DNA of 47,048 nt from a virus (taxonomy: Duplodnaviria > Heunggongvirae > Uroviricota > Caudoviricetes): the IMG/VR virus record IMGVR_UViG_2563366978_000001. The stretch is one strand, 5' to 3'. Under the pieces are notes generated by a model that saw only the letters and a program-made list of their open reading frames with translations, ran no database searches and was not told the DNA's origin. Both the position numbers and the translations under genes were made by a program. How positions within the stretch are numbered: the stretch's first letter is position 1; every line of letters starts with the position of its first letter. Positions 5,407 through 46,691 of the stretch are shown one piece after another.

Positions 5407-5598
5407 TTACTCCCCGTTCACCGAAAATTCACGATAGAAACGTTTCCACATACGATAAGTCTGCGCAAATTGTTCACCACGAAACATCGCCTTCCTGGCC
5501 TTCATGTTTTCCTTGTGAGACTTTCGGTCTATGAACCAAAACCATTGATGGAACACACAAAGCAAGAGACACAAAGATAATATCCAATCATTACCCAT
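5407..5598 (-). CDS. Small hypothetical membrane protein, about 63 aa (MGNDWILSLCLLLCVF...)
   Basis: In-frame ATG at 5596-5598 just beyond the repA stop; the longer track ORF would overlap repA. Confidence 0.4.
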   Translation of the reverse strand: MGNDWILSLCLLLCVFHQWFWFIDRKSHKENMKARKAMFRGEQFAQTYRMWKRFYREFSVNGE

Positions 5599-8500
5599 AG
5601 AAAGCGCCCTGCTCTTCGTAGCTGCATGAGCTATTCCCCGTAATGTATTCACGTAACCGCCGCAGCTCATTGCTGGAAAGGTGATCCATGAACTCTGTGA
5701 GGTACAGGGATGCAAACGTCATAGCTATGCTGGCTGATGACCATGATGACATAGTGGCCAACTCCTCACTGGAAAGCGCACTCATCGCCCAGGACTCAGG
5801 TACAGCCACTGGCAACACGGCCAAAGCCTCAGAAATTACTGAATGAGGGGCGTTTTGAACCTGCTCGTTTGTGGATCGCGTTTTATCATCCATATATATA
5901 TTGAGATCCAAATCGCGATCCATTTCGATGGCTGTCTTCTCGGCTTTACGCGTTTTTAGGGTTAGGCCATCTTTCTGACGCTGAACAAGAATATCCAGCA
6001 TAAATGCCGCTGATTCAGGCTCAACAAAACGCAAGGTTGGACGCTTATCGCCGTCTCTGCCGCGACGTTTACCTGTTTTAAGGCCAAGAGAGTCGCAAAT
6101 GTTTTTAAACAACGCTTCCGGCACTTTAGGCTTCCCTTTTGGCGTCATAAAACCACCAATGTGCAGAACGTTATTCAACAGGTCACGGCGTTCGGCTGTC
6201 ATGAGGTTATCTCGAGCGAATTTGAGACGCTCCTGAGTCGCCTCGCCGGTCATAGTCTCAGGGTTGATACCGCAGTCGATAAAGTACTGCCGGAGAGTTG
6301 CTGATTTAAGCGCATAGAAACCGCGCGCCCCGACTTCAACAGTAGGAGTAGCTTTTACCTTGTGATCGATTATTCCAGGGAATTTAGTTTTAAAGACATC
6401 ATCAGCCTGCTCGCGAGTCATCGCGGTCACTACAAAATATTGCCACTGTCCCGCCTGACGGTATGTGTAGGTAAAATTGATGGCTGCTTCTTCCCGGTCG
6501 TAACGACGAGCTGTTACCTCATCTAAAAGCATTGTTTCATAGCGGCGAACTTTGTCTCGAGCACCATCGAAATAGAATTTCAGCGTGCCTTCTTCAACCG
6601 GTAGTTTCAGTTCGTTTTCAATATCCCAGCGGACAAGTTTTGCCTGTTCTTCAAGCGTCAGCGCGCGTTTTTTTAGCAGTTCTTCACGCTCTGATTCTTG
6701 TGGTGTTTCTGTATTGAGGTGCAGATCCAGTGTCTGTTCCCACACAATATCCCGCGCTTCTTTACGCAGATCTTTACCGATATCATTCGCAGCATAATCG
6801 GTGGCCAGCGGTGATACCTTATAACCGTCGCTGTGCATGATGCAGATCATGTTGCTGGCGTAGTCGTTACGCGCAGTCGCTTCAATTGCGGCTGCTTTAA
6901 TTTTCATCCTGGTAAAGTCGGTATTGGCCACCCCCATTGATATACGGTCGCCATCGAAAACGACATCCGTAAGTTCACCGTTCATACCTGCGGTAGCAAG
7001 CAATGCCTGGGCGAATGCTCGTTCTATTTTTTGCGGGTCAGTTTCACGTTTTGCACGAGCTTTATCAAAGCCGATAATAAATTCTTTTGCTGTACGGTCG
7101 CGGCGTAGCATTTGCACTGCATCACTGGGTACAACTTCACCACAGAACATGCCGAAATGACGGTCAAAATGTTTTTGCTCAATCGACACGCCGGATGAAA
7201 TAGACGGGCTATAAATCAGGCCGTCGTATTTTTTGACCATCTTTTTCGGTTGATTGGTAAATGCTTCAACTTCTGGCTCTGGTTTGTTTTTCTGGTTTAC
7301 ACACAGAAATTTCTTACCAGGAAAATGCATTCTCAGGGTGGCTGTCACATCTTCTGCAAAGGTGGAGCTGTCGGTGGCCAACATGATTTTTTCGCCATCC
7401 GATACAGCTTTCACCACCTCGGTCATGATGCGATCTTTTTCTGTATAAAAAACCCGGATTGGCTCACCTGTTTCGCGGTTGCGAACATCAACAGGTAATT
7501 CAATTACGTGGATCTGCAGCCATGCCGGTAAACCTAGTTCTTCACGGCGTTTCATAGCCAGTTCAGCCAGGTCAACCAGCAGATCGTTCGCATCAGCATC
7601 CACCATGATTGGGTGTTGTTCCGTTCTGGCCAGCGCGTCAATTAGCGTATTGAATACAGCCACCGGGTTTTCCATAGCCCGACCGGAAAGAACGGCACGT
7701 AGCCCTTGTGTGGCCTCGTCAAAGCCAAAATAGTCGTGCTGGCGCATCAACGGTTGCCAGCAGTTTTTAACAATCGAGTTTATGCAGATGGTCAGTTTAC
7801 TGGCGTATGGAGCCATTTCCTGATAGCCAGGGTCCTGATAGTGCAGGATATCGGTTTTTACACCTTTTCCTTCTGTCATCATTTCCCACAGGCCACCAAT
7901 AAGGGAAACACGGTGAGCAACAGAGATACCACGTTCTGAGCTATGCATTAAAGGTCGTAACAATCCAGTAGATTTGCCGGAACCCATACCAGCACGAACG
8001 ATGACTATCCCCTGTAGTGATTGCACATACTTCAGGACGTCATCGGTCATTACCGAAGTTTCAAGACGCTTATAGGTGATATGTTGAGGACGTTTATTGG
8101 GATCAGTTATGCGTTCGCTGAATGAGCGCGGAGCCTGGGCAATACGGCACTTTTTATTCAGGCGACGGGCAATGTGGTCTTTTACCGTAGCGCGATAGAT
8201 ATTTTCCAGCCCCATTTCACGCAGAACGATGCAGAACATGTTAAATAAGTCTGACGGACTGTTAGGAACCGGACAGGTTAGCATGCCAATATCCACCGCT
8301 CTCAGCAGCTCTTTGGCAAAAGTACGACGGTTATCCCGCTTAATTGTCTTCAGGCGGTTGAGCGTCAGAGATAGCAAATCAGTGCCGGTTTTCAGGCGGT
8401 TTGCAGTTGCAAACAGTTGACGTGCTGTTTCACGAAGTCCACGCAGTTTGTGCAGGTCGTTGAAGTCACTGCACTCCATTTGCGGATCGTCTTCAAAAGT

Positions 8501-9586
8501 TGGATAGACGCAGCGGACATCGTTGAATTTCGATAAGATTTCATAGCCAGTCCGCAGGCCGGTATTCCCTTTTCCTTCTGTGGCTGATTTCCGGTCATTA
8601 TCCAGTGCGCAGGTGATTTTTGCCGCCGGGTACATGTTTACCAGTTGTTCCACAACATGAACCATGTTATTAGCGGATACAGCGACAACCACAGCGTCAA
8701 AGCGTTTATCTTTTTTCGTGGCAAGCCAGATGGATGCACCAGTAGCAAAACCTTCTGTAACAGCGATGTTTTGCGCCCCTTTTAGCTCACCGATAACAAA
8801 GCAGGCACCGACGAAATCGCCGCTGGTTACGGCGCTGGTCTGGTATTTTCCACCTTGTTTGTCGATTCGCTGCCAACCCACAATACGACCATCGTAACGA
8901 CCGTCCAGGTGAGCCAGAGGGATAGCCATATACGTGGTTGGCCCCCTGCTCCATTTTGCGCTGTCGTGACTGGTCACGCGACGCACATCACACGAATTAA
9001 AAACGTCACGAATACCTTTTTTAATCGCATATGGCCATGAGCCGTCTTCTGCAGGAGCATGTTCCCACGCGCTGTGGAATGCCAGCCATCCCAGCAAACG
9101 TTCATGGTCCATTTGGTTGTTTTTCAGGTCATTAATTCGTTTTTGTTCTTCACGGCGACGACGTGCTTCGGCCTGACGTTCTATTCTTGCCCGTTCTTCT
9201 TCCGGTTGTGCGACCACGGTCGCATTATTCCGTTGTTGCTCACGGCGATATTCAGAAAACAGGAAGGAGAAACCGCTCCATGAGCCAGCATCGCTGCCTT
9301 TATGGACGAAGTTAATGAACGGGTAATCAATCCCTTTGCTGTGTTCCAGCCGGGAGTAAATTTCTACGCGTCCTTTGAGGCTCTTTTCGAGAGCTTCTGG
9401 AGATGTTTTATTGTATGAAGAGTAACGCTCAACACCCCCGCGAGGGTTGAGTTGGATGTTGTCGGAACAGGCAGACCAGTTGATACCAGCCATCTGTGCC
9501 AGCTCGGTTAGTTCATCCCGTGCTGCTTCAATTAGCGAGAACGGATCGCTGCCAAAGCGATCCGCATAGAAATCGTTTAATGTCAT
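5591..9586 (-). CDS. repA: Replication protein RepA (primase-helicase), 1331 aa
   Basis: Single ORF of N15 RepA size (about 1324 aa from memory) in the N15 position between immunity region and telN side. Confidence 0.9.
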   Translation of the reverse strand: MTLNDFYADRFGSDPFSLIEAARDELTELAQMAGINWSACSDNIQLNPRGGVERYSSYNKTSPEALEKSLKGRVEIYSRLEHSKGIDYPFINFVHKGSDAGSWSGFSFLFSEYRREQQRNNATVVAQPEEERARIERQAEARRRREEQKRINDLKNNQMDHERLLGWLAFHSAWEHAPAEDGSWPYAIKKGIRDVFNSCDVRRVTSHDSAKWSRGPTTYMAIPLAHLDGRYDGRIVGWQRIDKQGGKYQTSAVTSGDFVGACFVIGELKGAQNIAVTEGFATGASIWLATKKDKRFDAVVVAVSANNMVHVVEQLVNMYPAAKITCALDNDRKSATEGKGNTGLRTGYEILSKFNDVRCVYPTFEDDPQMECSDFNDLHKLRGLRETARQLFATANRLKTGTDLLSLTLNRLKTIKRDNRRTFAKELLRAVDIGMLTCPVPNSPSDLFNMFCIVLREMGLENIYRATVKDHIARRLNKKCRIAQAPRSFSERITDPNKRPQHITYKRLETSVMTDDVLKYVQSLQGIVIVRAGMGSGKSTGLLRPLMHSSERGISVAHRVSLIGGLWEMMTEGKGVKTDILHYQDPGYQEMAPYASKLTICINSIVKNCWQPLMRQHDYFGFDEATQGLRAVLSGRAMENPVAVFNTLIDALARTEQHPIMVDADANDLLVDLAELAMKRREELGLPAWLQIHVIELPVDVRNRETGEPIRVFYTEKDRIMTEVVKAVSDGEKIMLATDSSTFAEDVTATLRMHFPGKKFLCVNQKNKPEPEVEAFTNQPKKMVKKYDGLIYSPSISSGVSIEQKHFDRHFGMFCGEVVPSDAVQMLRRDRTAKEFIIGFDKARAKRETDPQKIERAFAQALLATAGMNGELTDVVFDGDRISMGVANTDFTRMKIKAAAIEATARNDYASNMICIMHSDGYKVSPLATDYAANDIGKDLRKEARDIVWEQTLDLHLNTETPQESEREELLKKRALTLEEQAKLVRWDIENELKLPVEEGTLKFYFDGARDKVRRYETMLLDEVTARRYDREEAAINFTYTYRQAGQWQYFVVTAMTREQADDVFKTKFPGIIDHKVKATPTVEVGARGFYALKSATLRQYFIDCGINPETMTGEATQERLKFARDNLMTAERRDLLNNVLHIGGFMTPKGKPKVPEALFKNICDSLGLKTGKRRGRDGDKRPTLRFVEPESAAFMLDILVQRQKDGLTLKTRKAEKTAIEMDRDLDLNIYMDDKTRSTNEQVQNAPHSVISEALAVLPVAVPESWAMSALSSEELATMSSWSSASIAMTFASLYLTEFMDHLSSNELRRLREYITGNSSCSYEEQGAFYG
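5873..5922. other. Candidate replication origin inside the 3' part of repA: 8-bp inverted repeat GGATCGCG/CGCGATCC around an AT-rich core with three GATC sites
   Basis: Direct reading; N15-type origins are reported within the 3' part of repA (from memory). Confidence 0.3.
9209..9224. repeat. sopC-like palindrome TGCGACCACGGTCGCA (inside repA); putative centromere site
   Basis: 16-bp core of the palindrome family repeated five times in the window. Confidence 0.55.
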
Positions 9587-9831
9587 TTTTTAGCCATTCC
9601 ATGCGAATTATGTTTTTTCGGGTTGAAAAAATCCGCAGGAGCAGCCACAATAAACGCATCTTGAATTGACGGAATCCGTCGCGTTACTGTGGCTGCTTCC
9701 TGAAAAGGACCCGAGTTTGCCGACTCGGGTTTTTTTTCGTCTTTTTTCTGCTGCTGTAACCTGAGTCAACCCACAGAACATATGCTCTGCATTAAACCAG
9801 ATTTACAGCAAACAATAAACCCCGTATTAAG

Positions 9832-10428
9832 TCATCTACCCTCAACCATGAATGATTTGATCGTTCCGACTATTTGGTGAACAAATTCAAGATCGCTTTT
9901 CCTGAAGATGGCGCGTTGTGAATTTGTTCCGTCCAGATAGTAATTTTCATCATCAAAACGGGCCAGGCGCTGGATGGTGATATTTCCTGCAGTATCACGA
10001 ACCAGAACATCCTCGCCGGGAACCAGTTCCAGCGCAGAATCGACCAGGAGAAAATCGCCTGGCTGATAGTTTCCCTGCGCCAGATTGCTGATAGTTAACG
10101 CATAAACAGTATTGCGCTGGCTGATGAATGGCAGGAATCGCTCAGTATTTGGAACCTGTCCTGGCTTCCACTCTTCATCAGGTCCACTTTCAGTTGTGCC
10201 AATAACAGGAATGCGATCAGGGTCATATTCTGTCCCATACAGCACCCAATGCACTGGCTTGCGTAAGCACTTAGCCAGGGCAATACCTATCTCCAGTGAC
10301 GGCATTACGTCGCCACGTTCTAAGTTTTGGACGCCTGCAATAGAGATATCGACAGCCTCAGCAACTTCTCGCAACGTCAGCTTCATCTCTAAACGGCGTG
10401 CTTTCAGTCGTTCGCCTCGTGTTTTCAT
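9832..10428 (-). CDS. cB: CI-like prophage repressor (N-terminal HTH, C-terminal domain), N15 CB-like
   Basis: HTH motif LTLREVAEAVDISIAGVQNLERG; divergent from a cro-like gene across palindromic operators. Confidence 0.85.
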   Translation of the reverse strand: MKTRGERLKARRLEMKLTLREVAEAVDISIAGVQNLERGDVMPSLEIGIALAKCLRKPVHWVLYGTEYDPDRIPVIGTTESGPDEEWKPGQVPNTERFLPFISQRNTVYALTISNLAQGNYQPGDFLLVDSALELVPGEDVLVRDTAGNITIQRLARFDDENYYLDGTNSQRAIFRKSDLEFVHQIVGTIKSFMVEGR

Positions 10429-10492: not shown

Positions 10493-10741
10493 ATGAGATT
10501 TATTGCTTATAATAACCGCATGAAACCAGAAGAACTTATTCGCCACTTTGGCAGTGTAGAAAAAGCAGCGGCTGGGGTAGGTGTAACACCCGGTGCTGTT
10601 TACCAATGGTTAACCGCTGGAGAGATTCCTTCATTGCGGCAAAGTGATATTGAAGTTCGTACTGCTTACAAGCTGAAGAGTGACTTTACAACTCGGCGGG
10701 TAAAGCAGTCGATTAAGGAGAGCCGTAAGCGTGGAGCTTGA
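10493..10741 (+). CDS. cro: Cro-like small DNA-binding regulator (start may be the second ATG at 10520)
   Basis: Small basic ORF divergent from the repressor; HTH-like GVGVTPGAVYQWL. Confidence 0.75.
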   Translation: MRFIAYNNRMKPEELIRHFGSVEKAAAGVGVTPGAVYQWLTAGEIPSLRQSDIEVRTAYKLKSDFTTRRVKQSIKESRKRGA

Positions 10742-46613: not shown

Positions 46614-46691
46614 CTTTGCTTAATAATTATTGCTTTGCATATTTCTAGCAAATTGACATAGAAAAAGCAAAGTAAAACAAAAAAGGCAAAG
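46614..46691. promoter_or_regulatory. sopAB promoter/operator: CTTTGC hexamers at 46614-46619 and 46633-46638, inverted GCAAAG at 46667-46672 and 46686-46691
   Basis: Direct reading; F SopA autoregulates through CTTTGC repeats (from memory). Confidence 0.5.

Follow-up and report, generated by a model that had tools for sequence, protein, structure and literature searches.

How transcription of the replication gene repA is supplied and restrained across the spacer that separates it from the prophage repressor gene cB is the question raised by this locus. The window, by which the whole analyzed stretch of 47,048 nucleotides is meant, is an N15-like linear plasmid-prophage; its segment 9400-10000 is 100% identical to Escherichia phage PhiR46_1 and ~82% identical to N15, phiKO2 and many Klebsiella and Enterobacter phage-plasmids. 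The cB-repA spacer corresponds to positions 9587-9831, and both flanking open reading frames lie on the minus strand. On one side is a cB-like prophage repressor gene (9832..10428), which aligns with N15 gene 38 (cB) and encodes a protein of 198 aa with a Pfam HTH_3 match (3.4e-11) and a weak Peptidase_S24 match. On the other side is repA (5591..9586, minus strand, ATG at 9586..9584), which encodes a primase-helicase-type replication protein of 1331 aa with Toprim and origin-binding-helicase matches; over its first 300 aa, this RepA is 83% identical to that of N15. A Shine-Dalgarno (SD)-like sequence, GGAAUGG, can be read at 9594..9600 on the minus strand, and the N15 record has a ribosome-binding site (RBS) at the homologous place.

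A first-pass annotation of the window had read this spacer as an attenuator, in which two tandem terminators on the repA strand precede a promoterless repA that is fed only by read-through from the cB operon, so that copy number would be coupled to transcription of the repressor. The record of the N15 immB region (U45242; Lobocka et al., 1996, J Bacteriol 178:2902) describes a different arrangement at the equivalent place. There, PL is labeled "putative promoter of repA gene" and is accompanied by two CB operators; two terminators overlap each other, one being the "putative terminator of repA leader transcript" and the other the "putative terminator of RNA antisense to repA transcript"; and the last feature is "Pinc; promoter of putative antisense RNA". 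In the phiKO2 record (AY374448), the hairpin is a "putative bidirectional" terminator. The spacer of the window is probably the orthologue of this N15 repA copy-number control region, consisting of a CB-controlled PL, a structured leader and a countertranscript gene.

For the comparisons described below, an N15-clade set of 43 IMG/VR loci together with N15 and phiKO2 yielded 29 distinct spacers. A distant set was composed of PY54, eight IMG/VR relatives, the Enterobacteriaceae contig LSJC7 and an Erwinia tasmaniensis contig; the RepA proteins of this set are 45-52% identical to that of the window, and their spacers are unalignable with the window's. A genome-collection scan for relatives returned 3 loci only. 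The spacer of the window is matched by 214 plasmid records and is plasmid-borne in 18 of 5426 complete E. coli genomes, and it is without annotation in RefSeq. No E. coli genome among these was found to contain two such replicons (18 records in 18 genomes).

Promoter and operators of repA

PL is located at 9791..9819 on the minus strand and consists of a -35 hexamer, TTTATT (9819..9814), a 17-nt spacer and a -10 hexamer, TTTAAT (9796..9791). The hexamers and their spacing are the same as those of PL in U45242 (248-253 and 225-230), and they are invariant or nearly so in 12 sequences. The predicted start of transcription lies near 9784, which would give a repA leader of ~198 nt. The -35 region is overlapped by an OL2-type CB operator, TTATTGTTTGCTGTAA as read on the minus strand (9803..9818), which is the positional homologue of U45242 237-252, and the -10 region by an OL1-type CB operator, TTAATGCAGAGCATAT on the same strand (9780..9795), which is the positional homologue of N15 OL1 (U45242 214-229). 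Both putative operators keep the T-A-N10-T-A signature of N15 and phiKO2 operators (PMC4997575). An operator motif, WTAN6GCNNTAA, was derived from OL1, OL2 and three similar sites located between cB and cro. Over the 47 kb of the window it is found 10 times, compared with 2.7 +/- 1.6 expected, and 0 of 100 shuffles contained as many as 10; among its eight distinct sites, OL1, OL2 and the three OR positions between cB and cro account for five.

In N15, CB binds the two OL sites overlapping the predicted repA promoter, by which repA is repressed and copy number is lowered, and in phiKO2, CB binds its OL sites in electrophoretic mobility shift assays (EMSA) and Cro does not (PMC4997575, PMC4488713). 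From the conserved sites, we infer that CB also binds and represses PL of the window. The conservation of PL and both operators at 9780-9819, together with the binding of OL by CB in N15 and phiKO2, thus contradicts the earlier view that an obvious promoter for repA is lacking. A repA promoter downstream of both hairpins had been named as the arrangement that would speak against attenuation; the promoter found here lies upstream of both.

A consensus scan found no terminator between the cB stop codon and the leader, so that cB transcripts can read into the leader; repA also has a conserved PL of its own. The terminator-free stretch and the position of both hairpins on the path from cB to repA are in keeping with the attenuator reading, and, with PL repressed by CB in a lysogen, cB read-through could supply basal repA, as from PcopB in R1. 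The conservation of PL, OL1 and OL2 and the binding of OL by CB in N15 and phiKO2 nevertheless argue against a repA gene fed only in this way.

Hairpins of the repA leader and their tails

Both hairpins of the cB-repA spacer exist where they had first been noticed, and both exceed their shuffled controls (z -4.0 and -8.0). Hairpin 1 (9710..9729), in the minus-strand reading, has the arms CCCGAGT (9729..9723) and ACTCGGG (9716..9710) and the loop CGGCAA. With its flanks, it has a folding energy of -13.4 kcal/mol (z -4.0), and 0 of 200 dinucleotide-preserving shuffles were as good. The hairpin is flanked by a tail on each side. On the plus strand, the tail is an invariant T8 (9730..9737), the predicted 3' end of an antisense RNA, and the plus-strand match that ends with it (9702..9737) is the only terminator called by the consensus scan in the region. 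On the minus strand, the tail is UCCUUUUC (9702..9709), in which 4 of 8 nucleotides are T. An intrinsic terminator was taken to require a GC-rich stem and, beginning 0-2 nt beyond it, a stretch of 8 nt with 5 T or more; on the minus strand, hairpin 1 falls short of this threshold.

The same asymmetry is seen in relatives. On the antisense side of the GC hairpin, all 16 lineages have a tail with 5-8 T of 8, whereas the sense-side tail has 5-6 T in the N15/phiKO2 clade, 4 in the sub-clade of the window and 2-4 in the PY54 clade, where no sense-strand terminator was called at the GC hairpin. Hairpin 1 would therefore be, as judged from its tails, primarily the terminator of the antisense RNA throughout the family. 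The U45242 and phiKO2 records mark its counterpart as a terminator in both directions; on the repA strand of the window, it would be at most a weak or leaky attenuator, weaker than in N15.

Hairpin 2 (9636..9702, minus strand) is a long imperfect hairpin of the repA leader with ~21 bp at its base and an apical stem-loop. Its core, in which GCAGCCACA (9696..9688) is paired with TGTGGCTGC (9649..9641), is contained in a hairpin longer than the one described in the first-pass annotation; the full structure (9702..9636) runs from CAGGAaGCAGCCACAGUAACGC to GCGUUuAUUGUGGCUGCUCCUG and has GACGG-AUU-CCGUC as its apical stem-loop. The folding energy is -37.3 kcal/mol (z -8.0), with 0 of 200 dinucleotide-preserving shuffles as good, and for the whole leader z is -5.0, again with no shuffle as good. 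The 5' arm and loop (9701..9660) form a variable cassette that is complementary to the 5' half of the predicted antisense RNA, and the 3' arm is invariant and carries the -10 hexamer of Pinc on the other strand. Each of the 29 N15-clade variants forms hairpin 2, with folding energies of -27 to -40 kcal/mol. When the variable part alone was shuffled against the fixed 3' arm in 14 variants, z ranged from -4.0 to -7.6 and 0 of 300 shuffles were as good. Assignment of hairpin 2 to one strand by the asymmetry of G·U and A·C pairs gave no preference, the sense strand being the more stable in 15 of 29 variants.

The T6 (9626..9631, minus strand) that had been taken as the terminator tail of hairpin 2 is separated by 9 nt from the stem originally described, by 4 nt from the extended stem and by 40 nt from the repA ATG, which lies downstream. 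This T-run overlaps the -35 of Pinc (TTGAAAAAA on the plus strand), and a T-run after hairpin 2 is absent from the PY54, LSJC7 and Erwinia relatives. Hairpin 2 with T6 was rejected as a terminator because T6 is not adjacent to the stem, overlaps the Pinc -35 and is not kept in the PY54 clade. Of the proposed leader with two minus-strand terminators, there remains a structured leader with one terminator-type hairpin, whose T8 is on the plus strand.

These observations weigh on the attenuator reading from both directions. In its favor, both hairpins exist, U45242 names the counterpart of hairpin 1 the "putative terminator of repA leader transcript", and in the N15/phiKO2 clade the sense tail has 5-6 T. 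In the window, however, the sense tail with 4 T of 8 fails the scan, and in the PY54 clade it has 2-4 T with no terminator called; T6 is apart from hairpin 2 and is the -35 region of Pinc, and in the PY54 clade hairpin 2 lacks a T-run after its stem. Two tandem repA-strand terminators acting on a promoterless repA are thus very unlikely.

The predicted antisense cassette and its conservation

The orthologue reading includes, on the plus strand within the leader, a promoter directed at hairpin 1. Pinc (9623..9651) has a -35 hexamer, TTGAAA (9623-9628), a 17-nt spacer and a -10 hexamer, CACAAT (9646-9651), and its hexamers and spacing are the same as in N15 (U45242, 56-61 and 79-84). A promoter consensus scan found 2 sites in 1.6 kb compared with 2.2 expected, so that Pinc as a consensus match is not above chance; conservation and position, rather than the consensus match, argue for this putative promoter. 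If its start is placed at the 7th nucleotide after the Pinc -10 and its end at the T8, the predicted antisense RNA would be ~80 nt long (~9658..9737, plus strand). The predicted RNA folds at -30.1 kcal/mol (z -4.0) into a single-stranded 5' tail of 13 nt, an imperfect stem-loop and the terminator hairpin, and it has no overlap with the repA RBS. The first-pass annotation had passed over this cassette of Pinc and a plus-strand terminator. A search of Rfam gave sub-threshold matches only, which were driven by the terminator hairpin, and no CopA homology. In the openly readable literature, which does not extend to the primary papers, no paper discussing the antisense RNA was found, and, as far as could be established, this RNA appears to have been "putative" since 1996.

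Among the 29 N15-clade spacers, two parts of the leader hardly vary. Hairpin 1 with both tails has 33 of 36 columns invariant (mean pairwise identity 0.97), and a 46-nt ultra-conserved block (9614..9659), which contains Pinc on the plus strand and the 3' arm of hairpin 2 and CGGAUUUUUUCAACCCGAAAAA on the minus strand, has 43 of 46 columns invariant (mean pairwise identity 0.989). A conserved A-rich element in the 5' part of the leader, CAGCAGCAGAAAAAAGACG (9738..9756, minus strand), is largely invariant as well; its complementarity to the 3' arm of hairpin 2 makes it a candidate alternative partner of this arm. The 5' arm and loop of hairpin 2 have only 4 of 49 columns invariant and a mean pairwise identity of 0.60. 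When the hairpin-2 cassettes were aligned pairwise, their mean identity was 75%. Because the four-fold degenerate sites of repA codons 1-250 have a mean identity of 53%, and the cassette is below the four-fold value in 9 of 153 pairs, drift of the cassette is at or below the neutral rate. Diversifying selection on the cassette as an incompatibility determinant was rejected as a general claim on the same figures. In a few closely related pairs, the cassette diverges faster. What is truly anomalous is that hairpin 1 and the 46-nt block hardly vary, although neutral sites are almost saturated. Covariation within the N15 clade was uninformative on the structures, as the RNAalifold pairs of hairpin 1, of an alternative pairing considered below and of a hairpin on the RBS side are all invariant and MAFFT was unable to follow the indel-rich 5' arm of hairpin 2.

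Invariance of the 46-nt block extends to the promoter spacer and needs more than a promoter to account for it; a site for a protein at the DNA level could be present. Hairpin 1 might then be a mere bidirectional insulator of cB and PL transcripts and the block a protein site, for RepA autoregulation or for a host factor, with a fortuitous Pinc and no regulatory RNA. The chance-level consensus match of Pinc, the invariance of its spacer and flanks to the same degree as its hexamers, beyond what a promoter needs, and the failure of the folding analyses described below to yield a mechanism for the RNA are compatible with this explanation. It does not account for the distant relatives, in which a promoter-like site of different sequence (TTGCGC-17/18-TACAAT), directed at a terminator of the antisense strand only, is found at the same place and in the same orientation in the clade of PY54, LSJC7 and Erwinia, and in which the PY54-clade T-tail is on the antisense strand only, an arrangement that would be senseless for an insulator of sense transcripts. 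An insulator without a regulatory RNA is therefore unlikely.

Although the spacers of the distant set are unalignable with that of the window, their elements follow one order. A sense promoter, TTGnnA-17/18-TATTAT, is located directly after the repressor gene and is followed by a GC-rich hairpin, a second hairpin and the repA RBS, and the 3' arm of the second hairpin carries an antisense -10-like hexamer (TACAAT or TATCAT). Of 10 PY54-clade loci, 9 have TTGCGC-17/18-TACAAT or TATCAT as the positional counterpart of Pinc; locus L059 has TTGCAC-18-TAAAAT at the Pinc position and a predicted RNA of 72 nt. Throughout the 16 lineages, the antisense -10 ends at a distance of ~60-65 nt from the repA ATG, on its upstream side, and most of the predicted antisense RNAs have a length of ~75-110 nt. 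In the GC hairpin of the PY54 clade, 97% of cells are paired and 3 pairs are changed on both sides, that is, by compensatory exchange. The second hairpin is weak in this clade and clearly beats its shuffles (at most 3 of 300 as good) in 3 of 10 loci. Because the layout of antisense promoter and terminator is shared with the distant relatives, this pair, a promoter aimed at an antisense terminator, is the predicted conserved unit of the whole family; by the same comparison, the large hairpin 2 and a T-tail on the sense side are apparently N15-clade-specific elaborations.

Proposed control of repA and its relation to known systems

In the control scheme proposed for the window, PL lies right after cB and is overlapped by two CB operators, so that the prophage repressor would set transcription of repA. 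The transcript would begin with a structured leader of ~200 nt, inside which Pinc would fire a plus-strand RNA of ~80 nt ending at hairpin 1 and its T8. Within the repA leader, the antisense RNA would have two pairing partners, namely hairpin 1 and the 5' arm and loop of hairpin 2; hairpin 2 would thus be its structured target, and repA expression would be lowered. PL transcripts and cB read-through would be stopped in part at hairpin 1 on the sense strand. As to how the RNA would act, RNase III cleavage or decay of the duplex, convergent interference between PL and Pinc, and refolding of the leader are equally possible.

Refolding was examined in 27 variants by forcing the segment covered by the antisense RNA to be single-stranded. 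The unpaired probability of the SD was 0.18 with the constraint and 0.18 without it, and no consistent new hairpin appeared beside U6, results that belong to a thermodynamic model only. Occlusion of the RBS and a pT181-type switch were rejected, since neither effect was seen in the constrained folding.

A defined switch has nevertheless some features in its favor. By this explanation, the antisense RNA would free the 3' arm of hairpin 2 to pair with 9756..9738, and the RBS side would refold (UGCGGAUU / AAUUCGCA), leading to less translation of repA or to termination at U6 in the manner of pT181 or R1. An alternative pairing of AGCAGC with GCUGCU and of AGACG with CGUUU was picked both by RNAalifold and by constrained folding; it joins two invariant elements by 13 bp, and all of its pairs are invariant. 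The sequence UGCGGAU occurs twice (9637..9631 and 9566..9560), and either copy can pair with AAUUCGCA beside the SD. Such a switch would also explain invariance beyond the promoter hexamers. The invariance of the pairs, however, leaves covariation silent, SD accessibility in the 27 variants is the same with and without the antisense constraint, the details of the pairing differ between the window and N15, and equivalent elements are not evident in the PY54 clade. There is no conserved leader peptide either: small open reading frames end at or near the repA ATG, their frames differ among the variants and they have no consistent SD. An open reading frame of 57 aa at 9608..9781 is peculiar to the window. 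Taken with these points, a switch of this defined kind is highly improbable.

The orthologue reading is based on a close likeness to N15. The spacer shares with N15 its position between cB and repA, ~82% nucleotide identity, the hexamers of PL and Pinc, an identical stem and loop of hairpin 1, and operators at the same offsets. It differs in the operator cores, which match the window phage's own OR sites, in the sense tail of hairpin 1 (T4 compared with T5 in N15), in the sequence of the 5' arm and loop of hairpin 2, and in being 1 nt shorter between the invariant block and the RBS. With phiKO2, it shares the architecture, the invariant blocks and the terminator, whereas phiKO2 has another hairpin-2 cassette and a T6 sense tail. 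At the level of sequence, the window has all the defining features of an N15-type repA control region. The type of element is already known, having been in GenBank since 1996, and the window holds a close relative of it.

In the IncFII plasmid R1, copy number is controlled through the CopB repressor, PrepA and the antisense RNA CopA, which acts against CopT in the repA leader. The window resembles R1 in having a repressor gene upstream on the rep strand, a repressor-controlled rep promoter behind it and possible read-through, and also in a constitutive-looking antisense RNA of ~80-90 nt, predicted in the window, against a stem-loop of the leader that lies well ahead of the RBS. It differs from R1 in the lack of CopA sequence or Rfam similarity and of a conserved tap-like peptide, in a Rep protein that is a primase-helicase unrelated to R1 RepA, and in a repressor that doubles as the phage immunity repressor. 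Membership in the R1 CopA family was ruled out by the absence of CopA homology and of a tap-like peptide.

In pT181 and pIP501, transcription attenuation is driven by an antisense RNA. The likeness of the window to these plasmids consists in a countertranscript in the rep leader and in a hairpin and U-run upstream of the rep RBS. The difference is that, in the folding model, sequestration of the target builds no terminator by the U-run, and that the U-run of the N15 clade coincides with the -35 of the antisense promoter.

N15 mini-replicons without cB reach high copy number, which argues that the antisense RNA alone would not hold copy number low. The unvalidated countertranscript might still constitute a second layer of copy-number and incompatibility control atop CB, in which AGCAGC...AAGACG and the 46-nt block would be an antisense-triggered RNA switch and the hairpin-2 cassette would set the specificity groups; this proposal is possible, albeit doubtful.

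What is added here to the known element type is the role assigned to hairpin 1, the reading of hairpin 2 and T6 as something other than a terminator, the finding that the cassette is kept from N15 to PY54 and Erwinia, and the ultra-conservation of parts of the leader in comparison with neutral sites. The corrected annotation gives repA a CB-controlled promoter, instead of treating the gene as a promoterless passenger of the repressor operon, and a candidate antisense RNA encoded in its leader. N15-like elements occur frequently in clinical Klebsiella and E. coli, and N15 replicons serve as linear cloning vectors, in which copy-number control matters. If the proposed second layer of control is real, the hairpin-2 cassette would decide which N15-like replicons can coexist.

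Possible alternative pairings and a reading frame in the repA leader

Upstream of hairpin 1 on the minus strand, the leader of repA carries a nearly invariant 5′ element, CAGCAGCAGAAAAAAGACG (9738-9756), which does not fall within the predicted antisense RNA. The 3′ arm of hairpin 2, itself invariant, is complementary to this element, which would allow an alternative pairing of 13 bp. A second potential rearrangement involves the heptamer UGCGGAU, which occurs twice on the repA strand, directly after hairpin 2 (9631-9637) and in repA codons 7-9 (9560-9566). The sequence AAUUCGCA (9602-9609, minus strand), immediately 5′ of the Shine-Dalgarno-like sequence (SD) of repA, can pair with either copy, and in minimum free energy folds the SD region is paired with the copy in the early coding sequence. 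Such pairing could possibly act as a translational switch, but the pairs between UGCGGAU and AAUUCGCA are invariant, and in N15 the details are not the same.

The whole leader is also covered by a 57-aa ORF (9608-9781, minus strand) that starts at CATATG near the predicted start of the repA promoter PL. Across the family neither its start codon nor its frame is conserved, because indels in the variable hairpin-2 cassette shift the frame, and this ORF is probably not a gene.

Divergence of the hairpin-2 cassette and a small hairpin of the PY54 clade

Between the related loci L040 and L041, and between L038 and L040, the cassette (homologous to 9660-9709) has diverged more than the synonymous sites of the adjacent repA. 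Such an excess is seen in a few closely related pairs, one example having a four-fold identity of 0.93 versus a cassette identity of 0.78, and was not found in the family-wide average. The excess in these few pairs hints at local recombination or at episodic selection on the antisense target.

In the distantly related PY54 clade, a small conserved hairpin, CUGCGCAACUGUGCAG (1465-1500 in locus L052, and its homologues; columns 295-325 of alignment A3), is 90% paired, with one-sided changes from G·U to G-C, and is followed after 3-5 nt by a U5-U8 run lying directly before the repA SD. The terminator scan scored the hairpin of PY54 as terminator-like on the sense strand, and the antisense -35 sequence (TTGCGC) sits inside the hairpin. 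This structure could be a sense attenuator restricted to the PY54 clade.

Operator-like matches, inverted duplicates and spacer-less variants

Beyond the OL and OR sites, the CB-operator motif WTAN6GCNNTAA has three more matches (2047-2062, 10713-10728 and 46627-46642), about the number expected by chance (2.7). The match at 10713-10728 is located within the cro/Q region, near immB.

Two copies of the repA region, inverted relative to each other, are present in many contigs (the locus pairs L009/L010, L019/L021, L023/L027, L029/L030 and L055/L056) and in plasmid records with two places, such as CP088430 and NZ_CP126957. This arrangement would be expected if a linear plasmid with hairpin ends, or a replicative dimer, had been assembled head to head, and these records are no evidence of two co-resident replicons.

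The entire control spacer is missing from two natural variants, L049 (1330-1540; NZ_BMZO01000013, labelled Limoniibacter endophyticus, an assignment that looks like contamination) and L047 (1090-1230; Klebsiella phage Kpn_R1, PQ800144, a record with the status UNVERIFIED). In both, PL and the OL operators, hairpin 1, the antisense promoter Pinc, the ribosome-binding site and the repA ATG are all missing, and the C-terminal part of cB (...LARFDDERYYLDG) is fused in frame to repA at about codon 7; the Kpn_R1 junction retains 36 nt of the hairpin-2 cassette. A small divergent HTH gene lies upstream in each variant. These loci could be deletion derivatives, or could bear another immunity module.
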